NCBI GenBank assembly: GCA_013177825.1
Contig: JABLXX010000001.1
Span: 208,936-272,935 of the forward strand
Origin: Syntrophaceae bacterium
GTDB lineage: Bacteria > Desulfobacterota > Syntrophia > Syntrophales > PHBD01
Direction: 5' to 3'
Length of the DNA: 64,000 bases
Shown: positions 24,211 through 39,664 of the stretch, piece by piece
Layout of the letters: every line of letters begins with the position of its first letter
Numbering within the stretch: position 1 is the stretch's first letter
The notes under the pieces: model-generated
Databases searched by the model: none
What the model was told of the DNA's origin: nothing
Seen by the model: only the letters and a program-made list of their open reading frames with translations
Program-made: the position numbers and the translations under genes

Positions 24211-24483
24211 CGTTTCATTCCTCATCGCAGGATGGTCCGATACACGCGGGGTGCAATTCTCTATCACATTACTGTCGGGAATGCCCTTCCCTTTCTTCCT
24301 CCTGGGATGAGGTCCCCCCAGATATTGCAGGAGCAGATCCGCCTCTTTGCCGGTTGAAAAAAACTCAGCCACCTGTTAGTGACAGAGAACGAAACGGCAA
24401 ACCCCGACCGGCGTATCACTCCTGCCGTGAACTGCGGGAAGTCCGCTTCCGGTCCTGAACAATCCCATCGAAGGAGGGCGATC

Positions 24484-25623
24484 ATGGATTTCAGACTTAC
24501 GGAAGAGCAGGAACTCATTCGCAAGAACATGAGGGAATTCGCGGAGAAGTATGTGGACCCCATCGCCGCCGAGATTGACGAAAACAGCAGGCATCCTGTC
24601 GAGCTGTTCCGGAAGCTCGCAGAGGGAGACTGGATGGGGATTCCAATTCCCCAGGAGTACGGCGGAGCCGGAGCGGATTACCTGACGCACACGCTGGTCG
24701 TGGAGGAATTGTCGCGATCCTGCTCGTCAACGGGATTCACCGTCTCCATTCACGTGGGCATCGCCTGCATGCTGATCAACCTCTTCGGCAGCGAAGACCA
24801 GAAAAAAAAATTCCTCGTTCCCATGGCCAGAGGCCGGCACCTGGGCGCCTTTGTCCTGACGGAGCCGGGGGCCGGGACGGACGTTATGGCCGCTACGACC
24901 ACCGCCGTGGCGGACGGAGGCGATTATGTAATCAACGGAACAAAGACCTTTACGTCCAACGGACCGACGGGCGACACCTACATGGTCTTCGCATGGACAG
25001 ACAAGGCGGCAGGTCGGAAGGGCATGAGCGCCTTCATCGTTCCCAAGGAAACCATAGGTATGAAAGCAGGCGAACACTTTGACAAGATGGGTCTCCGCTC
25101 CTCCCAGACCTCCGAAATGGTCTTCAAGGACTGCCGGGTCCCGAAGGAAAACCTGCTGGGCAAGGAAGGAAACGGTATGGCCATGGCCATGGCGGGCTTC
25201 GACCACGGCCGAGTCGGGATTGCGGCCCAGTCCGTCGGAATCCTGCAGGCGGCCCTGGATGAGTCCATCCGGTATTCCAAGGAGCGGGTCCAGTTCGGCA
25301 CCCCCATTGCCCGGCACCAGGCCATTTCCTGGATGATCGCCGACATGGCCACGGACCTGTCCGCCGCTCGCTACCTGACCTATGCCGCCGCCTGGCTGAA
25401 AGACCAGAAACAGCCCTTCAGCAAGGAGGCCTCCATGGCCAAGCTGTTCGCCGCCGAGGCCGCCATGAAACACACGATCAAGGCCGTTCAGATCCACGGC
25501 GGATACGGGTACTGCAAGGGTGCCAAGGTGGAGCGACTGATGCGGGACGCGAAGATCACCGAGATTTACGAAGGAACGTCGGAGGCACAGAGGATGGTGA
25601 TATCCGGAAACGTGCTCCGCTAG
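24484..25623 (+). CDS. Acyl-CoA dehydrogenase (short/medium-chain, butyryl-CoA dehydrogenase-like)
   Basis: MDFRLTEEQELIRKNMREFAEKYV...FVLTEPGAGTDV...FTSNGP...QIHGGYGY...RDAKITEIYEGTSEAQR. RBS GGAGG upstream of the ATG at 24484. Confidence 0.92.
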   Translation: MDFRLTEEQELIRKNMREFAEKYVDPIAAEIDENSRHPVELFRKLAEGDWMGIPIPQEYGGAGADYLTHTLVVEELSRSCSSTGFTVSIHVGIACMLINLFGSEDQKKKFLVPMARGRHLGAFVLTEPGAGTDVMAATTTAVADGGDYVINGTKTFTSNGPTGDTYMVFAWTDKAAGRKGMSAFIVPKETIGMKAGEHFDKMGLRSSQTSEMVFKDCRVPKENLLGKEGNGMAMAMAGFDHGRVGIAAQSVGILQAALDESIRYSKERVQFGTPIARHQAISWMIADMATDLSAARYLTYAAAWLKDQKQPFSKEASMAKLFAAEAAMKHTIKAVQIHGGYGYCKGAKVERLMRDAKITEIYEGTSEAQRMVISGNVLR

Positions 25624-25662
25624 GAAACCGGGGTTCGGGAATGCCCGGACGGAGGGATGAGG

Positions 25663-26433
25663 ATGGCAGTCCTGGTTGCATGCTTCAAATGGGTCATCGA
25701 CGAGGCCTACATCCGGCGGACCTCCGCCGGTGAACTGGACCTGTCTTCTGTCAGTTACAAGATCAGCGACTACGACCGGAACGCCCTGGAAGAGGCGGCC
25801 CGCCTGAAGGAAGCAGCCGGAGGATCCGTCGCCGCCGTAACCGTGGGTATCCCCGAAGCGACCAAAGGCGTCAAGGACGCCCTCTCCCGGGGCGCCGATC
25901 AGGCCTTTTTCATTGCCGATCCCTCCTTTGAAAAGCTTGATGCCTCCCGGACGGCCGCCGTTCTGGCGGATGTCATCCGGACACGCATCGGTCATTTTGA
26001 TCTGATCCTCTGCGGCGAAGGATCGAGCGATCGCTACGACCAGCAGGTTGGGATCCGCCTGGCGGAGCGGCTGGGCATCCCCTGCGTGTCCTTTGTCCAG
26101 AAGATCGATCTGGAGGAAGGGCGCCTGTCGGCCGAACGGCGTCTGGAGGACGGGATCGAGCAGGTTTCCGCCCCGTTGCCCGCCGTTGTGACGGTCCTTC
26201 CGGACATCAACGTTCCCAGAATCCCCGGCGTGAAAGACACGCTGTCGGCCTCCCGCAAGCCCATCGTCACGATCGGCAGGGAGGAACTGTCCGTCACGCA
26301 GGACGACGGGCATTTTCGCACCGTTTCACTCACGGCTTCCCGACTGGAGCGGCAGTGCGAGCGTTTCGGGATGGACGAGGCGGAAATCAGCCGTTTTGTC
26401 GGAATGCTTCGACAAAAGGGAGTTCTCCGATAA
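25663..26433 (+). CDS. etfB: Electron transfer flavoprotein, beta subunit
   Basis: MAVLVACFKWVIDE...ISDYDRNALEEAARLKE...DLILCGEGSSDRYDQQVG. The second ATG (25663) is better spaced from GGAGGG than the one at 25657. Confidence 0.85.
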   Translation: MAVLVACFKWVIDEAYIRRTSAGELDLSSVSYKISDYDRNALEEAARLKEAAGGSVAAVTVGIPEATKGVKDALSRGADQAFFIADPSFEKLDASRTAAVLADVIRTRIGHFDLILCGEGSSDRYDQQVGIRLAERLGIPCVSFVQKIDLEEGRLSAERRLEDGIEQVSAPLPAVVTVLPDINVPRIPGVKDTLSASRKPIVTIGREELSVTQDDGHFRTVSLTASRLERQCERFGMDEAEISRFVGMLRQKGVLR

Positions 26434-26444
26434 AGGAACACGCC

Positions 26445-27407
26445 ATGGCAGGAATCTGGATATTCGCTGAAAAGATCGGGCAGGCCCTGGAACTTCTCGA
26501 GGCGGGGCAAACACTCATCGCCGCAGGAATGAGCGGAGAACTCGCGGCCTTTTCGTGGCCGGGCGGACCCGACCCGGAGGTACTCGGAACGGGAGGCGCC
26601 GCCGAAGTGTTGCTGCTTCCGCCTCTGGCCGAAGATCAGCCTCTTGAGGCCTATGGACCCGCCATTTTGGCGGAAGCCCGGCAAGCAGGGCCGGACTTAT
26701 TGCTCTTTTCCGCCACGGCCCGCGGCAAGGACCTGGCGGCCCGGATCGCCGGCGGTCTCGATGCCGGACTCTGCAGCGGATGCACCGCTCTCCGCTGGGA
26801 CAGCGAATCCGAAACACTGGAAATGGAGAGGCTTTTGTACGGCGGAGCGGCGGTTCACAGGATCGCGGCCCTCGCCTTCCCCATTCTGGCGGCCGTGCCC
26901 CCCGGAACGTTCCGTCCGGGCGCCGGAAACCCGGACCGGAAACCCCGAACCCGTCATCTGCCGGCGCCTCCCCTTTCTTCGGTCCGCGTACTGGAACGAA
27001 AGCCCAAGGAGCGGCAGGGACTGGACGTCGCGGCGTCGAAGATCGTCGTATGCGCCGGCCGCGGCTTCGACAAAAGGGAAGATCTTGCCCTTGCCCGCGA
27101 CCTGGCGGATGCCCTGGGTGGCGCCCTGGCCTGCACGAGGCCGATTTCTGAGGAAATGCACTGGCTTCCGGAAGACCTCTGCATCGGACTGTCGGGCATC
27201 CAGGTCAAGCCGGACCTGTATATCGGTATCGGCGTCTCCGGCCAGGTCCAGCACCTGACGGGAATCCGCGGCGCCAAGGTCGTCTGTGCCGTCAACCGCG
27301 ACGATCAGGCGCCGATCTTTGCCGCAGCCGACCTGGGCATCGTCGGCGACCTCTATGCGGTCCTTCCCCGTCTCCTTCAGGCGTTGAAGGAAACGGCGTC
27401 TCCCTGA
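26445..27407 (+). CDS. etfA: Electron transfer flavoprotein, alpha subunit
   Basis: C-terminal FAD-binding region IVVCAGRGF...LGGALACTRP...QVKPDLYIGIGVSGQVQHLTGI...VVCAVNRDDQAPIF. Start at the ATG at 26445 (MAGIWIFAEK). Confidence 0.85.
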   Translation: MAGIWIFAEKIGQALELLEAGQTLIAAGMSGELAAFSWPGGPDPEVLGTGGAAEVLLLPPLAEDQPLEAYGPAILAEARQAGPDLLLFSATARGKDLAARIAGGLDAGLCSGCTALRWDSESETLEMERLLYGGAAVHRIAALAFPILAAVPPGTFRPGAGNPDRKPRTRHLPAPPLSSVRVLERKPKERQGLDVAASKIVVCAGRGFDKREDLALARDLADALGGALACTRPISEEMHWLPEDLCIGLSGIQVKPDLYIGIGVSGQVQHLTGIRGAKVVCAVNRDDQAPIFAAADLGIVGDLYAVLPRLLQALKETASP

Positions 27408-30750: not shown

Positions 30751-31998
30751 ATGATCCGGCAAGACACCTTCCAGCGCATATCCGCGCGCATCGATCGTTA
30801 CGAAGCGGACATGATCCGCCTCCAGGCCGAGTTGACGGCCATTCCCGCCCTGGCCCCGGAAAACGGCGGGGACGGCGAATACAGAAAATCGCGCCGTCTG
30901 AAAGAGCTTCTCGAAGAGTATGGCTTCCCGGAGGTCCGGGAGATCAATGCCCCCGACGAGCGGGTATCGGACGGCGTCCGCCCGAACCTGGTGACCCTGA
31001 TCCCTGGGCGGACCGACCGGAGGGTCTGGATCCTGTCGCATATGGACATCGTTCCGCCGGGAGAGCTCTCCTTCTGGGACGGAGATCCCTACACGGTCCG
31101 CGTCCGCGACGGCAAGGTCTTCGGAAGGGGGACGGAAGACAACCAGCAGGATCTGGTCGCCTCCGTCTTCGCCGCCAAGGCGTTCCTCGACGAAGGAGTC
31201 GTTCCGGAGGCCGCAATGGGGCTTGCTTTCGTAGCCGACGAGGAAACGGCCAGCCACAAGGGGCTGGATTATATCCTGCAAAGCCCTGATAATCCGTTCC
31301 GCCGGGACGACCTGCTGGTCGTCCCCGATTCGGGAAACGAAGACGGCTCCCTCATCGAGATCGCCGAGAAGAGCATCCTCTGGCTGCGCTTAGAGACCAT
31401 TGGAAAGCAGTGCCATGCCAGCCGGCCCGATATGGGCCTCAACGCCTTCCGGGCGGCGTCCCACCTGGTGGTTCGCCTGAACGGGCTTCACGACCGTTTC
31501 GAAGCCGTCGATCCCCTTTTCAATCCTCCGCGAAGCACCTTCGAACCAACCCGGAAGGACGCCAACGTCCCCAACGTCAACACGATCCCCGGCGAAGACG
31601 TTTTCTACCTGGACTGCCGTATACTCCCACAATACGACCTTTCGGAGGTCGAAGCGGTCATCCGGTCCATGGCCGATGAAATCGAAAAAAGCTTCGGTGT
31701 CTCCATCTCCATCGCACCGGTGCAGCGGATCCAGTCCCCCCCGGCGACTCCCGCCTCGTCACCGGTCGTTTCCGCTCTGAAGAACGCCATCCGGGATGTG
31801 TACGCTGTTTCCGCCACGCCCCAGGGGGTGGGAGCGGGAACCGTTGCCGCCTTTTTCCGGGCCGCCGGGTACCCCGTGGCCGTCTGGAGCCGCTGCCGCT
31901 ACATGGCCCATCAACCGAACGAATACTGCCTCCTGTCAAGCATGACGGGCAATGCCAAGGTCTTCGCCCATCTGGTCCTCCAGGAAGCGGGATACTGA
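30751..31998 (+). CDS. M20 family metallohydrolase (ArgE/DapE/ACY1/CPG2 type)
   Basis: SHMDIVPPG, GRGTEDNQQDL, FVADEETAS: the metal-binding His/Asp/Glu blocks of M20. Confidence 0.8.
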   Translation: MIRQDTFQRISARIDRYEADMIRLQAELTAIPALAPENGGDGEYRKSRRLKELLEEYGFPEVREINAPDERVSDGVRPNLVTLIPGRTDRRVWILSHMDIVPPGELSFWDGDPYTVRVRDGKVFGRGTEDNQQDLVASVFAAKAFLDEGVVPEAAMGLAFVADEETASHKGLDYILQSPDNPFRRDDLLVVPDSGNEDGSLIEIAEKSILWLRLETIGKQCHASRPDMGLNAFRAASHLVVRLNGLHDRFEAVDPLFNPPRSTFEPTRKDANVPNVNTIPGEDVFYLDCRILPQYDLSEVEAVIRSMADEIEKSFGVSISIAPVQRIQSPPATPASSPVVSALKNAIRDVYAVSATPQGVGAGTVAAFFRAAGYPVAVWSRCRYMAHQPNEYCLLSSMTGNAKVFAHLVLQEAGY

Positions 31999-32068
31999 AC
32001 GGCATCGGGTCCTTGCAAACCGAACGGAACAGTGTCCGGAATCGTCCGCTCCATCCGCCACATTTCCA

Positions 32069-32097
32069 TTGACACGTCCTCATGATTTCCCTATGCT
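32069..32097 (+). promoter_or_regulatory. Sigma70-type promoter for the hydrogenase operon
   Basis: TTGACA (32069-32074), 17-nt spacer, TATGCT (32092-32097). About 210 nt upstream of the ATG at 32310. Confidence 0.45.
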
Positions 32098-32309
32098 CGT
32101 TTGGAATTTCAAGCACTTGAATTGTGTGTTGAAAATAACAGAGGACCTTTCGGACACTCGGTCCTGATTCATCCAGCGGGGGCGCGTTACAGCAAAGGGG
32201 GGTTTGCTCTTTCGGGCAAGCCCCTCGCTTGTCTGTCGCAGTCCGCTGCGGCAGGGCGCCGGACAAACGAAGCGCAATGAATATACGGAAGGCTTAGGAC
32301 AGGTTCCAT

Positions 32310-35300
32310 ATGATCAGCATTCGCATCGACGGGCAAGACTATCTGGTGGAAAAAGGACAGACCATCATCGATGCCGCGCGGGCCCACGGCATCGACATCC
32401 CCTTTCTCGGATACGACCCCCGGGTCAGCCCGCCAAGCAACGTGGAAGCGGCCTTTGTGGAGCTTCATGCAGGAGGCGGCATCAGATTCGTCTCGGCGAC
32501 GGCCACCGAGGCGTCGGAAGGCATGGTCATCCGTACAGAATCGGATGCCCTGGCAAGTTACCGGAAAATCTACCTTCAGGCCATACTCCGCCATCACTAC
32601 GGCGACTGCACCGCACCGTGCGTCCGGCGCTGTCCCGCCCACATCGACATCCAGAAGTATATCTACCACGTGGATGCCGGCAATTTCCGGGAGGCCCTGG
32701 AAGTCATAAAAGACAGCAATCCGATGCCCGCCGTCTGCGGCCGCGTATGCCCCCATCCCTGCGAATCCGACTGCCGGAGAAACGCCGTCGACGGCGCCGT
32801 CAACATCAACGGCATCAAGCGATTCGTCGCCGACAGGGACCGCTGCCAACTCACCCCCTACCGGCCGGAGTGTGCGTCCGATACGGGCTTTCGAGTCGCC
32901 GTCATCGGTGCCGGTCCCGCGGGTTTGACAGCGGCCTGGTTTCTCCGGAGGGCCGGGCATCGGGTAACGATCTTCGAGATGCAGGAAGCGGCTGGAGGAA
33001 TGCTGCGCTGGGGAATCCCCTTCTACCGTCTTCCCGAGGAAGAACTCGATGCGGAGATCCAGTCCATTCTCGAACTCGGTATCGACATTCATTACGGGAA
33101 GAAGCTTGGCCGCGATTTTACGCTGGATTCCCTGAAAAAGGACGGGTTTGACGCCGTGTTCGCCGGCCTGGGCGCACAGAAGGCATCCCCGATCGGAGTG
33201 GAGGGAGAAAACCTCCCCGGCGTCGTCTCGGGACTTGATTTTCTCGCGGCACTGGCGCGGGGGGGGAAACCGGAAACGGGGGAGCGGGTGATCGTTCTGG
33301 GCGGTGGAAACACCGCCATGGACGCGGCCCGCAGTGCCGTCCGGCTCGGAGTCAGGGATGTCGTCGTAGCCTACCGGAGAACCCGTCGCGAAATGCCGGC
33401 CCAGGAGGATGAGATCGAAGAGGCCCTGGAGGAAGGAGTCGACATCCGATACCTGACAGCCCCGCTGGCCATCGAGAAGGAAGGCCCCTTGCTTCGGCTC
33501 ACGTGTACAAAAATGGAACTGGGGGAACCGGACAAGAGCGGAAGAAGACGGCCTGTTCCCGTTCCGGGGTCCGAGTTCACCCTCATGGCGACGATGATCA
33601 TCTCCGCCATCGGGCAGACCGTGGACGGCCTCTGCCTGGGACACGAAAAGCTTCTCGACCGGTGGGGAAATGTCCAGGCCGATCCCGCGACCATGCAGAC
33701 GGCGATTCCCTGGGTCTTCTCAGGCGGCGACTGCGTAACGGGTCCCGACATCGCCATTGCCGCCATCGGGGCCGGCAGGAAAGCGGCCGCATCCATCGAC
33801 CGTTATCTCCGGGAGGGAACGGTCCTGTCTCCCGACGAACCATACTCCTGCACGAAGGGTGACTGGAAGGACATCCCGAAGGATGCCTTCAAGGACGTCC
33901 GGCCCGCCCGGAGAAACGGGATCATCGTTCTGCCGCCCGAAGAAAGGAAATCAACCTTTGCGGAATCGACCCGGACCTGGGACGCCGATACGGCCATGGA
34001 GGAAGCCTCCCGGTGCCTCCTGTGCGGTTGCTCGGAGCGCTACGGATGCGATCTCCGAAGTTACGCAAGCCGCTACGGCGTCCAGCACGATGAATCACGG
34101 CCGGGAACACTCCTGCCGGTGGACGACAACCACCCGATCATCCGGCGTGACGCCGGAAAGTGCATCCTCTGCGGACTCTGCCTGAAGGTATGCCGTGAGA
34201 TGGAGGGAGTCTCCGCGCTGAGCTTTTACGAGACGAACAACGTTCTCACCATCGGACCGAACGACCACCGCCCCCTGGATCTGACGACCTGTGTCGCCTG
34301 CGGTCACTGTACAACCATCTGCCCAACGGGAGCGCTGACCCTGAGGCCGGTCCTGCCTTCCGTGTACCGGGCCCTCCACACGCCGGAATGGACGGTCGTC
34401 GCCCAGATCGCTCCGGCGGTGCGCGCCGCCTTCGGCCAGCACTACGGCATTCTGCCGGAAAACGTCATGCCCGTGTTGAGCGCGGGGCTGAAGGAACTGG
34501 GATTCGATTTTGTCTTCGACACCTGCTGGGCCGCTGACCTGACCATCATGGAGGAGGGCACGGAATTCCTGTCGCGCCTGGCGGAGGGCGGCGTGATGCC
34601 CCAGATCACGTCCTGCTGCCCTGCCTGGGTGAATTACTGCGAAAAAATGGCACCGGACATCCTGCCCAACCTTTCCTCCTGCAAATCTCCCCAGCAGATG
34701 TTCGGCGCGGTCATGAAGCGCTATTTTGCAAAGCAGTTGCGGGTGAGGCCGGAACTTCTCTGCTTCATCTCCATCATGCCCTGCAATGCCAAAAAATACG
34801 AAGCCAGCCGTCCGGAGTTCCGATCGGGAGACGTTCCCGACGTGGATATCGTCATGACGACAACCGACGTCATCGCCATGTTCGAGGAGAGGCACATCGA
34901 TCCCCTGTCGATCAAACCCGTTCCCGTGGACGCGTTCTTCGGGAAGGCCAGCGGCGCCGGCATCATTTTCGGGGCCAGCGGCGGCGTGGCGGAAGCGGCC
35001 CTGCGGCTGGCATCGGAGAAGATCAGCGGCCGGAGAATGGAGAGCTTCAATTACGAAGGCGTGCGGGGGATGCAGGGGGTCAAGGAGACCAGGGTCCGGC
35101 TGGGCGAGACCGACGTCCGGCTGGCTGTCGTCAGCGGGCTGCAGAACGCCCAGCGGTTGATCGACCGGATTCGGGCCGGCGACGCCCCCTACGACCTCAT
35201 CGAGGTCATGGCCTGCCCGGGCGGATGCATCAACGGCTCGGGCAATCCGGCTCCACAGCTGAAAAGCGACACGGAATACCGCCTGGAGGTTCTGTACCGT

Positions 35301-35761: not shown

Positions 35762-36037
35762 ATGCTTGTGGTCACCATCTGTGTCGGCAGTTCGTGCAGC
35801 CTCCGGGGATCGGATGAACTGGCGTCCGGAATCCAGCGGCTCATCGTCAAGGAGCAACTCGAGGGACTGGTCGACATCGTCGGCGCCTTCTGCATGGATG
35901 CCTGTTCAAAAGGCGTTTCGGTGACAGTGGGCAGCCGCGAGTTCAACGGCATTCGCCCGGAAGACGCCGACGCCTTTTTTTATCGCGAGATCTTTCCCCT
36001 GCTCGGCAACAACGAACTCGTGAGGGCTCGCTCATGA
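35762..36037 (+). CDS. Small thioredoxin-like [2Fe-2S] ferredoxin (NuoE/HndA-like, HfsA-like)
   Basis: 91 aa. MLVVTICVGSSCSLRG...GAFCMDACSKG carries four Cys in the TRX-like 2Fe-2S arrangement. Start set at the ATG at 35762. The stop overlaps the next gene as ATGA. Confidence 0.7.
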   Translation: MLVVTICVGSSCSLRGSDELASGIQRLIVKEQLEGLVDIVGAFCMDACSKGVSVTVGSREFNGIRPEDADAFFYREIFPLLGNNELVRARS

Positions 36038-37752
36038 ACGAACCGGTCATCATCACGAATCCCGCCCTGTGTCACGACTGCTACCGCTGCGTGCGGAACT
36101 GCGACGTCAAGGCAATCCGCGTCCGGGACGGACAGGCCCAGGTCGTCCCCGAGCTCTGCATCCTCTGCGGCACCTGCATCCGCGTCTGCCCCCAGAAGGC
36201 CAAAGGCGTGCGGGCCTCCAGGCCGGACGTCTTGAAGGCGCACCGGGAAGGCCGGAAAATCATCGCCTCGGTGGCTCCTTCTATTCCCGCGTTCTTTCCG
36301 CTCCGAAGCTTCGCACAGGTTGAACATGCATTGAAAGCAATCGGGTTTCACGCCGCCGAGGAAACGGCCGTCGGCGCCCACATCGTGGCCCAGGCCCACC
36401 GGGACTACATGGAACAATCGAGAGACCGCTGGCCCGTGATCACCTCTTCCTGTCCTGTCATCGTCAATCTGGTCGAGCAGTATTATCCGGATCTCATCGG
36501 CCACCTGGTGCCCATCGTATCGCCCATGATCGCCCACGGCCGGATTCTGGCCCGGAAATACGGCCCCGAGGCGTACATCGTCTTCATCGGCCCCTGCATC
36601 GCCAAGAAAATGGAAATCCATGACGAGGCCGTAAGCGGCGTTGTCCATGCGGCCATAACCTTCCAGGGCCTGCAGGAATGGATGGCCGGGGCGGACGTTG
36701 CATGGCCCGAGCCGGCGGACGTGCCCGAAAAATCCGTTGAGGAAAAAGCGAGGCTGTTCCCCGTCGAGGGGGGACTGATCGGGACGGCCAGGATGAGTAC
36801 GGACATCCTGGACAAGCATCTGGTCATCGCCTCTGGTCTTCGCGCCTGCCGGGACGTTCTGAACGATATCCGCTCGGGGCAGCTTCACGCCTCCATGGTG
36901 GAGCTCATGGCCTGCAAGGGGGGATGCGTCAACGGACCGGTCATGGCCGACATGGAAGGCGGTATCTACGCGGCCCGGGAGAAGGTGATCCGTTTTCACG
37001 GCCGTTGCCAGCCGGAATTGCCCGTTCCCCAAGACGAATGGCCCGATCTGGCCAGGGGATACCGGGACCGAAAGGAGCACGGCCCGGAATTCAGCGAGGA
37101 AGACATTCAGAAGGTCCTGCACCGCATCAACAAGTACGGCCCCGACGACGAGCTGAACTGCGGCGCCTGCGGCTATTCATCCTGTCGGGAAAAGGCGCTG
37201 GCGACCCTGCGGGGCATGGCGGAAGTGACGATGTGCATCCCCTACATGCGGCGCCGCTCCGAATCACTGCGCCAGGTGGTCATGGATGCCACGCCGAACG
37301 CGATCATCATCGTCGACAACGACCTTCTGGTTCAGGACATGTCCCCCTCGGCGGAAACACTGTTTCGGAAAACCCTGTCCGATGTGAAGGGGAAGCACCT
37401 TTCGAACCTCATCACGGTCATGGACGATTTCATTCATGTCCGCGACACGGGGCAGCCCGTCATCGGCAGGGCGAGACGGCTGAAGGAAGACTTGGTGGGT
37501 GAACAGTCCATTGTCCGTGTCGAGGGACAGCTTCTCATGGTCGCCATTATCCGCGATGTCACGGAGCGAGAGAAGGAACGGGAGCAGTTCCGCTCCATCC
37601 GCGAGGAAACCCTGGAGCGGACACGGGAGGTCCTGGGCAAGCAGATGCGGGTTGCCCATGAGATCGCCCACCTCCTCGGAGAGACCACGGCGGAAAGCAA
37701 GACCATCGTGACCCATCTGGCCCGGTTACTGGAAGGGGATGATCAGGAGTGA
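36034..37752 (+). CDS. hydS: Putative sensory [FeFe] hydrogenase (group C / HydS type) with a C-terminal PAS domain
   Basis: 2x[4Fe-4S] CHDCYRCVRNC / CILCGTCIRVCP. Variant H-cluster motifs ITSSCPVIV, IGPCIAKKME, ELMACKGGCVNGP. Extra motif CGACGYSSC-x16-C. PAS-like region VVMDATPNAIIIVDNDLLVQDMSPSAETLF. Confidence 0.85.
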   Translation: MNEPVIITNPALCHDCYRCVRNCDVKAIRVRDGQAQVVPELCILCGTCIRVCPQKAKGVRASRPDVLKAHREGRKIIASVAPSIPAFFPLRSFAQVEHALKAIGFHAAEETAVGAHIVAQAHRDYMEQSRDRWPVITSSCPVIVNLVEQYYPDLIGHLVPIVSPMIAHGRILARKYGPEAYIVFIGPCIAKKMEIHDEAVSGVVHAAITFQGLQEWMAGADVAWPEPADVPEKSVEEKARLFPVEGGLIGTARMSTDILDKHLVIASGLRACRDVLNDIRSGQLHASMVELMACKGGCVNGPVMADMEGGIYAAREKVIRFHGRCQPELPVPQDEWPDLARGYRDRKEHGPEFSEEDIQKVLHRINKYGPDDELNCGACGYSSCREKALATLRGMAEVTMCIPYMRRRSESLRQVVMDATPNAIIIVDNDLLVQDMSPSAETLFRKTLSDVKGKHLSNLITVMDDFIHVRDTGQPVIGRARRLKEDLVGEQSIVRVEGQLLMVAIIRDVTEREKEREQFRSIREETLERTREVLGKQMRVAHEIAHLLGETTAESKTIVTHLARLLEGDDQE

Positions 37753-38927
37753 GGCAGGTCGTTGAATTTGCCTGGCGCAGTTTGAACAAGGCCGGGGAAG
37801 AACTCTGCGGCGATTCGGTCATCATCCGGACCCGCCCCGATTCGTTCGTCGCCGTCCTGTCGGACGGCCTGGGCAGCGGCGTCAAGGCGAGCATCCTTTC
37901 CACCTTGACGGCAGAGATCGCCGCCCGCCTCTTCGAATCGGGGATCTCCGTGGAAGAGGTCATGCAGACACTCGTGGAGACCCTTCCGGAATGCAATGTG
38001 AGAAAACTGGCCTATGCCACGTTCTCCGTACTCACCGTGATCGAGGGCCGTCGCGCCCATCTCGTGGAATTCGATTCTCCGCCCCTGATCATGATCCGGG
38101 ACAATGCCCTCTTCGACATCCAGACGGAAAAACGGGAGGTAAGCGGCCGGTTGATCCGGGAAGCCCGTTTCGATGTCCGGGAAAACGATTACCTGGTCCT
38201 GATCAGCGACGGCTATGAGCACGCGGGCCTCGGAGGCATTTACCGCATGGGGTGGAGATGGCCGAACATCGCCTTGGCCGTGCAGCGCTTCGTCCAGACG
38301 GGCGTGGACACGCACAGGCTCATGCTCGCCCTTTCGCGGACCTGCATGAAGCTTTACGACGACAAGCCCGGTGACGATTCGACGGTCATCGCCATGAAAA
38401 TCCGGCCGGCCGTGTCCATCGCCATTCTCACGGGGCCCCCCGCCGACAGGGATCTGGACGCTCATGCCGTTTCCAGGCTGATGGACGCCGAAGGCTGCAA
38501 GATCATCTGCGGAGGGAGCACCGCCCAGATGGCCGCCCGTGTTCTGGACAGGAAACTGGAGGTGGAGTGGGTTCCGCCCTGGAAACGGACGGAGGAAAAG
38601 CCCGCCCGGAAAAAAGGCTCCCCTCCCACGGCCCTCCTGCAGGGGGTCGATCTCGTCACCGAAGGGATCCTGACGCTGGGCCAGGCCGTCGAACTCATGC
38701 GCAACGCCGGAACAAGCGACGATCTTCCCCGCGACGACGACGCCGCCACCCGCCTTGCCCGCCATCTTCTGGGGGCCGACGACATCCATCTGATCGTCGG
38801 CACGGCCATCAACCCCAACCAGGTTGCCGACCTGATCCGCGGCGAGCCCATGCGCATGGTTTACATTCGTGAACTCGTTCAGGATCTTACACAGCGAAAC
38901 AAGCAGGTCCGGGTCGAGCGGATATGA
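37749..38927 (+). CDS. SpoIIE/PP2C-family serine phosphatase with an uncharacterised C-terminal domain of about 160 aa
   Basis: LCGDSVII...VAVLSDGLGSGVKASILS...DYLVLISDGYEHAG...GDDSTVIAMKI are SpoIIE-type metal-binding Asp blocks. 4-nt overlap with hydS. Confidence 0.8.
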   Translation: MRQVVEFAWRSLNKAGEELCGDSVIIRTRPDSFVAVLSDGLGSGVKASILSTLTAEIAARLFESGISVEEVMQTLVETLPECNVRKLAYATFSVLTVIEGRRAHLVEFDSPPLIMIRDNALFDIQTEKREVSGRLIREARFDVRENDYLVLISDGYEHAGLGGIYRMGWRWPNIALAVQRFVQTGVDTHRLMLALSRTCMKLYDDKPGDDSTVIAMKIRPAVSIAILTGPPADRDLDAHAVSRLMDAEGCKIICGGSTAQMAARVLDRKLEVEWVPPWKRTEEKPARKKGSPPTALLQGVDLVTEGILTLGQAVELMRNAGTSDDLPRDDDAATRLARHLLGADDIHLIVGTAINPNQVADLIRGEPMRMVYIRELVQDLTQRNKQVRVERI

Positions 38928-38938
38928 CCTGCACCGAA

Positions 38939-39664
38939 TCAGTCATGATCCAGAATGATCGAACGTTGCGAGGACGGGGGCTGGATCAACCGTCTGGGGA
39001 GTGCAATTCTCACCGTTGTACCCGTCGGGCCACGTTCCGGATCGGCATTCGATTCAATTCTCATTTCGCCTCGATGCGCTTTGACCGTACTGTACGCCGA
39101 CGGCAGGCCGAGGCCCGTTCCCTCACCGACCGGTTTGGTCGAGAAAAAGGGCGTGAGCAGTTCGTCCAGGTGCTCCTGCGGGATTCCCGTTCCCGTGTCG
39201 CGGATCGTAATCATGATCCTTTCACCGTCGGCGCTCTCCTCCCCGAATACCGTGAGTATGCCCCCCTGGGGCATGGCCTCGATGGCGTTCCGTTCGAGAT
39301 CGATCAACGCTTTCACGATGCGCTCATGATCCAGCCAGACGTCTTTGTCCTTGATTTCCGACCGGAGGGCTACATGAACGGATTCCGGTACGGAGAGGGA
39401 CCGGAGGCTGTCATCCAGGATAAGGACAATGTCCGTTTTTCTAAATTTTAGTCCCTGCAAGGCCTGAAGTATCCCCCTTTGGTCATGTCTTTCATTCTGC
39501 CGCTCTCCTCCGGTATATTCCACTTTGATTGCAGAAGGAAGGCAGCTTCCGGAGGCATCCGGATTCCTGAAACCGTCCCCTGCCTTCGTACTTTTCCTGC
39601 GGGTGAAGACTATACACGAGATCGGGGTGTCCCAGCAAAACGTTTGCAATGGGAAAAGGATCAT
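38939..39664 (-). CDS. Sensor-less histidine-kinase core (HATPase_c with a weak DHp region)
   Basis: N box [13 protein letters not shown]1 RDTGTGI, F box FFSTK, G2 GTGLGL. Candidate H-box [15 protein letters not shown] at 39664 preceded by GAGGAG 8 nt upstream. Confidence 0.7.

Follow-up and report, generated by a model that had tools for sequence, protein, structure and literature searches.

The hydS locus

The 64,000-nt stretch of a Syntrophaceae bacterium genome analyzed here (contig JABLXX010000001.1; "the window" below) harbors an operon of four genes that encode, in this order, a [FeFe] hydrogenase fused to a GltD-like module, a small [2Fe-2S] protein, a second hydrogenase-like protein designated HydS, which is the subject of this work, and a phosphatase of the SpoIIE/PP2C family (Table 1). 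An initial annotation, made from the letters of this region alone, viewed HydS as a paralogue of the upstream catalytic enzyme in which the environment of the H-cluster is altered and which acts as a low-turnover, H2-binding sensor. The hydS gene, a single long open reading frame (ORF), is translationally coupled on both sides: the stop codon of the preceding small [2Fe-2S] protein gene overlaps the hydS start (ATGA), and the GTG start of the phosphatase gene overlaps the hydS stop (GTGA). The small protein gene itself starts 11 nt after the end of the upstream hydrogenase gene, and a gene for an orphan histidine-kinase-type ATP-binding (CA) protein, convergent with the phosphatase gene, lies 11 nt downstream of it.

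HydS consists of an N-terminal ferredoxin-like F-domain, the H-domain of [FeFe] hydrogenases, an accessory cysteine motif, a PAS domain and a C-terminal helical hairpin. The eight cysteines of the two F-domain cluster motifs (C13, C16, C19, C23 and C42, C45, C48, C52) are all invariant in two alignments.

Table 1. Coordinates of hydS, of the parts of its product and of neighboring features in the window
Feature	Coordinates	Strand	Evidence and remarks
hydS, 572 aa	36034..37752	+	ATG start; coordinates include the stop codon
HydS F-domain, residues 6-56	36049..36201	+	Pfam Fer4/Fer4_10/Fer4_7; two CX2CX2CX3C [4Fe-4S] motifs
HydS H-domain, residues 75-302	36256..36939	+	Pfam Fe_hyd_lg_C, E 1.4e-52
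HydS Val159 codon	36508-36510	+	
HydS accessory cluster motif, C376-x2-C379-x4-C384-x16-C401	37159..37236	+	Direct reading; PF04060 "FeS" (putative Fe-S cluster), residues 374-403, E 1e-8
HydS PAS domain, residues ~413-509	37270..37560	+	Pfam PAS, 413-463, E 2.9e-5; TIGR00229 (PAS S-box), 407-518, E 2.8e-6
HydS C-terminal helical hairpin, residues 510-572	37561..37749	+	Secondary structure of the AlphaFold2 (AF2) model
GltD-fused group A hydrogenase, 1146 aa	32310..35750	+	Pfam and NCBIfam; TIGR02512 445.4 bits (cut-off 405.95)
Thioredoxin-like [2Fe-2S] protein, 91 aa	35762..36037	+	Weak Pfam 2Fe-2S_thioredx, E 1.7e-3; invariant cysteines
SpoIIE/PP2C-family Ser/Thr phosphatase, 392 aa	37749..38927	+	Pfam SpoIIE, E 1.7e-13
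C-terminal domain of the phosphatase, residues ~220-392	38409-38927	+	Conserved alpha/beta domain; AF2 confidence (pLDDT) mostly >85
Orphan histidine-kinase-type ATP-binding (CA) protein, ~173 aa	38939..39460	-	Pfam HATPase_c, E 2.6e-18
Promoter-like TTGACA-17-TATGCT	32069-32097	+	Operon leader
13-bp GC-rich hairpin	32197-32226	+	Operon leader, ~85 nt before the start codon
Acyl-CoA dehydrogenase and electron transfer flavoprotein (ETF) beta/alpha genes	24379-27407	+	~5 kb upstream of the hydrogenase operon

Active site of the H-domain

Four motifs can be read verbatim in HydS, TSSCPVIV (residues 137-144), IGPCIAKKME (185-194), ELMACKGGCVNGP (290-302) and CGACGYSSCREKALATLRGMAEVTMC (376-401), and they are far beyond chance. 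In the ORF of the upstream hydrogenase, the H-domain motifs read TSCCPAW, MPCNAKKYE and EVMACPGGCINGSGNP. HydS was aligned with the C. pasteurianum hydrogenase CpI, whose sequence was checked against PDB 1feh/4xdc (574 residues, with two mismatches that were corrected). All cysteine ligands of the H-cluster are kept, C140, C188, C294 and C298 of HydS corresponding to C300, C355, C499 and C503 of CpI. Also conserved are K191 (K358), E194 (E361), the APS segment 230-232 (A81-P82-S83) and the SP segment 323-324 (S163-P164); F417 of CpI corresponds to F242.

The substitutions that the initial annotation had read from the first two motifs are borne out by this alignment: the cysteine at the proton-relay position, C299, is replaced by S139, the tryptophan W303 by I143 and the methionine M353 by G186. 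The annotation was also right about the third motif, as the glycine-rich continuation is indeed missing from ELMACKGGCVNGP, with the nuance that the H-cluster-proximal methionine, M497 in CpI, is unaltered (M292); Pro/His500 of CpI is replaced by lysine. At the proton-pathway positions, E282 is conservatively replaced by D124, R286 by Q128 and S319 by V159, and E279 is replaced by H122, a tentative mapping that adjoins an alignment gap. This mapping indicates that the residues binding the H-cluster are intact and that the proton relay of the group A enzymes is remodeled. Judged by alignment, HydS keeps every ligand for the H-cluster and for three accessory [4Fe-4S] clusters.

Conservation was assessed in 121 close homologues and in 83 related loci from three phyla, 80 of them from named genomes and three retrieved by exact protein, in which the ORFs of the retrieved flanking sequence (up to 8 kb on each side) were scanned with the window proteins. 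Neither set shows any variation at G186, at K191 or at the cluster ligands. The position of C299 is Ser or Ala in the family, Cys being confined to 8 of the 30 Firmicutes. At the position of M497, Syntrophales and Chloroflexi have Met or Leu, and Firmicutes have Leu, Asn or Ser. Val159 of the window protein departs from the Ala of 120 of the 121 close homologues; Ala is also found there in 53/53 loci of Syntrophales and Chloroflexi, including three Smithellaceae paralogues.

This conservation bears on the possibility that HydS senses the redox state of the cell, its F-clusters and the small [2Fe-2S] protein reporting on the ferredoxin/NAD(P)H pool, with an H-domain that would be vestigial or serve as a reference electrode. 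Such a role would be consistent with the strict co-conservation and translational coupling of the small protein and with the location of the extra C-terminal cluster, which adjoins the PAS domain. However, the residues that hold the [2Fe] subcluster (C298, K191, P82/S83 and S163/P164) are invariant across the three phyla, although a pure Fe-S redox sensor would not need them, and TmHydS of Thermotoga maritima takes up the cofactor and reacts with H2 (PMC10055695). A purely redox-sensing HydS is, on these grounds, very unlikely.

Classification

The [FeFe] hydrogenases of types M2f (group C) and M2e (group D) have in common an N-terminal 2x[4Fe-4S] domain and a C-terminal Cx2Cx4Cx16C motif, C299 is not conserved in them and other residues of the proton pathway are missing, and a PAS domain is present in group C only, not in group D (PMC8163306; the group C definition is also given in PMC13104023 and PMC11216029). 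The statement of the initial annotation that Cx2Cx4Cx16C is the accessory motif of HydS is verified by the first of these sources. Among sensory enzymes, the C299 position is occupied by Ala (43%), Cys (17%), Pro (10%) or Ser (10%), and the M353 position by Gly (51%), Ser (32%) or Thr (17%) (PMC10055695). HydS has the N-terminal clusters, the H-cluster ligands, the lost C299, a small residue at the M353 position, the Cx2Cx4Cx16C motif and the PAS domain that characterize group C. It is not a group A enzyme, having no Fe_hyd_SSU domain and bearing the motifs TSSCP and GPC, and it is not a group D enzyme because of the PAS domain and the glycine at the M353 position.

Profile scores, and phylogeny as far as group A is concerned, agree with this assignment. 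HydS reaches 98.8 bits with the NCBIfam group A model TIGR02512 (cut-off 405.95) and 205.8 bits with the monomeric group B1 model (cut-off 450). A neighbor-joining tree with bootstrap was built from 308 columns of the Fer4 and H-domains, with a group A set that comprised CpI, the GltD-fused hydrogenase (GltD-HydA) of the window and ten bifurcating-type HydAs from the related loci. HydS, its orthologues from three phyla and distant representatives form a clade with 100% bootstrap support on a long branch, and every group A sequence is outside this clade. Placement in the catalytic groups A or B, which the initial annotation had named as the outcome that would speak against a sensor, was not found, given that HydS lies below the group A and B1 cut-offs and apart from group A in a tree without reference sequences of group B.

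Within the same H-domain clade, three proteins with 42-43% identity to HydS over residues ~5-430 carry the sensor module fused to different outputs. P0255 consists of the sensor module, PAS, HisKA and HATPase_c, P0240 of the sensor module, HisKA and HATPase_c, and P0218 of the sensor module, a sigma54 AAA+ domain and a helix-turn-helix domain. The fact that relatives fuse the same module to histidine kinase or sigma54 outputs supports a signaling role for HydS, and these domain fusions provide the strongest in silico argument for it. P0218 would be a one-protein H2-responsive transcription factor, no mention of which was found in the literature examined.

Architecture, substitutions and gene neighborhood match the published putative sensory enzymes of group C / M2f, among them T. 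maritima HydS, Ruminococcus albus HydS and Thermoanaerobacterium HfsB, and so does the H-domain phylogeny within the limits of the tree. The HydS-type identity proposed initially is supported. The HydDB subgroup C3 ("phosphatase-linked") is defined by co-transcription with a Ser/Thr phosphatase (PMC5037454), and HydS probably belongs to this subgroup, an assignment made on gene linkage only. We consider it probable, at roughly three chances in four, that HydS is a group C (M2f) putative H2-sensing [FeFe] hydrogenase of Syntrophales, encoded in a four-gene operon with a PP2C phosphatase. Its role as a low-turnover H2 sensor is putative and is deduced from homology.

Several points weigh against this conclusion. 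The sensory role carries the label "putative" in the case of the model enzymes, too (PMC8924675). In the group D model enzyme, H2 leaves the C-terminal cluster unreduced (PMC13104023), which makes a part of this cluster in signaling doubtful. Proton relay by S139 or by the invariant histidine at the tentatively mapped E279 position is conceivable in principle. The tree contained no reference sequences of groups B and D and no named group C sequences. Genes for the maturases HydE, HydF and HydG were not found by a Pfam scan of 20 larger ORFs in the rest of the window, and neither a transcription factor nor a STAS protein is encoded near hydS.

Size and distribution of the family

A word-indexed search returned over 5000 full-length homologues (~572 aa), the best 120 of which share 64-93% identity with HydS. 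Those with names bear generic labels ("PAS domain S-box protein", "ferredoxin") and come from metagenome-assembled genomes of Syntrophales, Smithella and Desulfomonilia. An exhaustive search of representatives at 50% identity yielded 850 clusters at E<=1e-30, and nearly all of the best 150 of these are 550-590 aa long and match end to end. The exact HydS protein is encoded on the Logan metagenome contig SRR6186653_20550; the nearest genomes, with 84-86% identity, belong to uncultured Syntrophaceae, and the orthologues in Firmicutes, at 37-43% identity, are found in the same order of small ferredoxin-like gene, hydS and PP2C gene. By these comparisons, HydS is an ordinary further member of a large and already described class of group C sensor-type proteins and, the class being known, it reveals no new principle by itself.

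Additional copies of hydS were also observed. Three Smithellaceae loci (L034, L035 and L036) contain second hydS paralogues with 58-61% identity that have no adjacent PP2C gene and in whose tails ETAAE replaces ETTAE; the paralogue in L035 adjoins genes for a 933-aa histidine kinase and a 683-aa methyl-accepting chemotaxis protein (MCP). The Clostridium ganghwense locus (L072) has a tandem pair of hydS genes.

The C-terminal half of HydS

The features that the initial annotation had placed behind the H-domain are all present. The spacing Cx2Cx4Cx16C is exact in CGACGYSSCREKALATLRGMAEVTMC (C376/C379/C384/C401); these cysteines are invariant in 83/83 related loci, and the motif occurs in 145 of 149 family representatives. 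An AF2 model of residues 345-572, computed with 45 homologues (mean pLDDT 80), surrounds the cysteine motif with short helices and continues with a five-stranded PAS core at pLDDT >90. The PAS domain is thereby supported by Pfam, NCBIfam TIGR00229, the predicted fold and Foldseek, which matches it to PAS/LOV sensors of the PDB at E 3e-8 to 1e-5, among them LOV-histidine-kinase chimeras, YF1, FixL, EcDOS and short LOV proteins with a J-alpha helix. The charged tail takes the form of a 38-residue charged helix (510-547), which is followed by a turn (548-552) and a helix of ~15 residues (553-567), so that it ends in a helical hairpin (pLDDT 59-85).

The tail gives no match in Pfam, yet no other part of the protein is as highly conserved. 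The segment KQMRVAHEIAHLLGETTAESK is at least 98% conserved in the 121 close homologues, and the hairpin tip has the motif KQMRVA(H/Q)EIAxLLGETTAE(S/T)K. Orthologues from Chloroflexi and Firmicutes with 37-60% overall identity keep the pattern QM+VA(H/Q)EIAxLLGE(T/A)TAE(S/T)K, which is weakened to ..LGE..A.. in more distant representatives. Within the sequences compared, the tip LLGETTAES/TK is therefore conserved across the three phyla Syntrophales, Chloroflexi and Firmicutes belong to.

The same segment raises the question of whether the tail of the Syntrophales HydS is a degenerate dimerization and histidine phosphotransfer (DHp) domain, in which the orphan CA protein would phosphorylate His542 in trans, the two together making a split histidine kinase that the PP2C would counteract. 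RVAHEIA of the tail can be aligned with GVAHEINTPL, the H-box of P0255, and the two segments follow their PAS domains at similar distances. In the CA protein, the N, G1, F and G2 boxes are intact and a DHp domain is absent; residue 542 is His in 33/33 Syntrophales, the sole clade with the CA gene. The similarity is nevertheless insignificant: hhalign of the tail against seven HisKA sequences gives E 0.02 (0.2 for the reversed control) at a probability of 2%, BLASTP against P0255 gives E 2.4, and no Pfam HisKA match appears at E<=10. All 30 Firmicutes and 5/17 Chloroflexi have Gln as residue 542 although they keep the rest of the motif, and Chloroflexi with His at this position have no CA gene. 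Furthermore, the AF2 model puts His542 six residues from the turn and gives the second helix only ~15 residues, unlike a DHp domain. PP2C enzymes, moreover, act on phospho-Ser/Thr and not on phospho-His. With similarity, conservation and hairpin geometry all against it, a split histidine kinase is not supported and is highly improbable.

Mimicry of the hairpin tip of an MCP by the tail was also considered and rejected. The best profile matches in the PDB are tip fragments of T. maritima MCPs, at only E 0.34, and hhalign against nine MCP signaling domains gives E 0.18, not better than the reversed control.

Gene neighborhood

The adjacent phosphatase on which the initial annotation had built its proposed interaction assays is the most constant neighbor of hydS: besides being translationally coupled in the window, a PP2C with both domains is encoded directly downstream in 78/83 loci (Syntrophales, Anaerolineae and Clostridia/Limnochordia). 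The AF2 model of the window protein matches SpoIIE, RsbU and RsbX in Foldseek (E 5e-11), and the metal-binding motifs GD, DGxGxG, DG and DDxT are invariant in 78-79 of 79 sequences. Beyond the phosphatase fold, the HydS-linked PP2Cs of the three phyla have a C-terminal domain with the invariant motifs GPP, CGG(S/T)T, PP, EG and NP. No Pfam match and no sequence relative in the PDB were found for this domain, and the Foldseek matches listed for the full-length model are all PP2C-type phosphatases.

In at least 63 of the 83 loci, in all three clades, hydS is directly preceded by the gene of the small [2Fe-2S] protein, and the cysteines of the CX4C...CX3C pattern of this protein (C7, C12, C44 and C48) are invariant in 71/71 orthologues. 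According to these counts, the conserved core consists of three genes, for the small [2Fe-2S] protein, HydS and the PP2C, which Syntrophales, Anaerolineae and Clostridia have in common.

The catalytic partner is less constant. A catalytic HydA is encoded within 8 kb of hydS in 50/83 loci, in all three clades. The GltD-fused enzyme is found upstream of hydS in 28/83 loci, all of them in Syntrophales; outside this order, a different HydA or none is present in the fetched flanks. The window enzyme is composed of 2Fe-2S, GltD-like NAD(P)H/FAD, 2x[4Fe-4S], group A H-domain, small-subunit and thioredoxin-like 2Fe-2S modules, and its active-site motifs are canonical (TSCCPAW / MPCNAKK / EVMACPGGC). 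It is of the HydDB type A2 ("glutamate-synthase-linked"), the role of which is listed there as undetermined.

This arrangement could also be read as that of a working hydrogenase of low rate, or an electron-transfer subunit, in which HydS is complexed with the small [2Fe-2S] protein and GltD-HydA, its PAS domain having no more than a modulating function. The operon is shared with a catalytic hydrogenase and a ferredoxin-like gene in tight coupling, all H-cluster ligands are kept, TmHydS and TamHydS turn over H2 slowly (PMC10055695, PMC8163306), and the hfs operon, which encodes a comparable set of proteins, was originally presented as that of the main T. saccharolyticum hydrogenase (PMC11837493). 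Yet the type of the catalytic partner varies between clades while the PP2C is almost universal, the proton pathway and the M353 position are altered, and close relatives swap the PAS domain and tail for kinase or sigma54 outputs. Moreover, loss of hfsB raised hydrogenase activity in T. saccharolyticum, and deletions of hfsA or hfsB gave a regulatory phenotype distinct from that of hfsC or hfsD deletions (PMC5707799). A catalytic or electron-transfer subunit is, in view of this evidence, quite unlikely.

The orphan CA protein matches only the CA part of AtoS and ZraS. Its ORF is open to 39664, with a probable TTG start at 39460 that is preceded by the Shine-Dalgarno sequence AGGGGGA. Of the 83 loci, 26 have the gene at a distance of at most 4 kb from hydS; all of these are from Syntrophales, and the gene is found on either strand (plus in L003; minus in L002, L004 and the window). 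The CA protein may take part in the system.

Other features surround the operon. Its leader (31950-32350) has no match to an Rfam family, promoter and terminator scans returned no more sites than expected by chance, and inspection by eye revealed no convincing sigma54 promoter; a promoter-like element and a GC-rich hairpin in the leader are listed in Table 1. Seven Smithellaceae loci (L002, 1948-3805; L003, 2008-3799; L018, L021, L023, L026 and L028) have a divergent gene for a 404-435-aa MCP upstream of the GltD-HydA/hydS operon, with a CheW gene beside it in L002 and L003, the two loci checked for it. Neither MCP nor CheW genes are present in the window. The acyl-CoA dehydrogenase and ETF genes upstream of the operon fit with a syntroph that degrades fatty acids or aromatic compounds.

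Proposed signaling pathway

In the pathway we propose for a sensory HydS, H2 would be bound and slowly split at the H-cluster, by which the H-cluster and the N-terminal clusters would be reduced, with the small [2Fe-2S] protein as a possible redox partner. The resulting redox or conformational change would pass through the C-terminal cluster domain to the PAS domain and on to the C-terminal helix, which would form a dimer, and its tip. The hairpin tip would then determine how active or how available the co-translated PP2C is, and through the phosphorylation state of a target the NAD(P)H-linked hydrogenase would be adjusted to ambient H2, in its synthesis or in its activity. The neighboring catalytic hydrogenase is probably the one controlled by HydS.

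The interaction partner has been named as a key gap in the understanding of sensory hydrogenases (PMC13104023). One rather unlikely answer is that the hairpin tip (LLGE-T/A-T-A-E-S/T-K) and the C-terminal domain of the PP2C together form the missing output interface of HydS-type sensors, with H2 controlling a phospho-switch either by docking and release of the PP2C at the tip or by phosphate cycling on T551/T552, which the orphan CA domain might join in Syntrophales. No description of such an interface was found in the literature examined.

The authors of the TmHydS study ask whether the residue at its S267 position, that of M497, tracks environmental H2 (PMC10055695). The Met or Leu that Syntrophales and Chloroflexi have at this position would fit a sensor adapted to the very low H2 levels of syntrophic life, and the Met of the window protein may bias the sensor to low H2, as would suit a syntroph.

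The partial pressure of H2 decides whether syntrophic degraders of fatty acids and aromatic compounds, such as Syntrophales, gain energy. If the proposed pathway is correct, a dedicated H2 sensor acting on the NAD(P)H-linked hydrogenase would provide a point at which both interspecies hydrogen transfer and methanogenic carbon flow are controlled. For specialists in HydS signaling, the small ferredoxin/HydS/PP2C core of three phyla, the invariant hairpin tip and the unannotated C-terminal domain of the PP2C offer targets; the lineage pattern at the M497 position, which may track lifestyle, and the pairing with a GltD-fused (A2-type) hydrogenase in syntrophs are of interest as well.

Comparison with known systems

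The nearest characterized counterpart is TmHydS, which was compared through its published residues (A131, G177 and S267; PMC10055695). It shares with the window HydS four [4Fe-4S] sites in addition to the H-cluster, the N-terminal 2x[4Fe-4S] domain, Cx2Cx4Cx16C, the C-terminal PAS domain, Gly at the M353 position, a non-Cys residue at that of C299, an altered proton pathway and a gene located with that of another hydrogenase. The two differ at the C299 position (Ala131 in TmHydS, Ser139 here), at that of M497 (Ser267, which tunes the potential of [4Fe-4S]H, as opposed to Met292) and in Tyr223 as opposed to Phe242. TmHydS is an enzyme of low activity with a stabilized reduced state (PMC10055695).

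TamHydS of Thermoanaerobacter mathranii, a group D (M2e) enzyme, resembles the window HydS in its N-terminal clusters, Cx2Cx4Cx16C, the lost C299 and a sensor-like behavior of low activity (PMC8163306, PMC13104023). Group D, however, has no PAS domain and typically Ser or Thr at the M353 position, where the window HydS has Gly.

By gene content, the closest systems are the hfsABCD operon of Thermoanaerobacterium, in which HfsB is the PAS hydrogenase, HfsC a Ser phosphatase and HfsD the catalytic hydrogenase, and the HydS/HydA2 cluster of R. albus, which was down-regulated 111-fold in co-culture with an H2 consumer (PMC6776011). As described in PMC5707799, PMC11837493 and PMC6776011, both combine a PAS hydrogenase, a PP2C-type phosphatase and a catalytic [FeFe] hydrogenase, with a small protein first, and genetic and transcriptomic data indicate a regulatory function. 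In these terms the three-gene core of the window has the gene content of hfsA-B-C and of the R. albus HydS cluster, the 91-aa protein being a putative equivalent of HfsA. The window differs in that its catalytic enzyme is encoded upstream and is a 1146-aa GltD-fused group A hydrogenase rather than a ferredoxin-only one, in the added orphan CA gene, and in having no adhE, rex or Ser/Thr kinase gene nearby.

A looser parallel is offered by HoxBC-HoxJ of Ralstonia eutropha, where, as summarized in PMC5707799, a [NiFe] hydrogenase of low activity signals H2 through a PAS partner to a phosphorylation cascade that acts on hydrogenase genes. Its metal site and fold are unrelated, and its output is a histidine kinase and response regulator instead of a PP2C, so that the resemblance is one of analogy and not of homology. 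P0218, P0240 and P0255, finally, possess the same module of Fer4x2, H-domain and FeS motif as the window HydS, but carry their outputs covalently attached, whereas the window HydS ends in a short hairpin and is accompanied by a separate PP2C.

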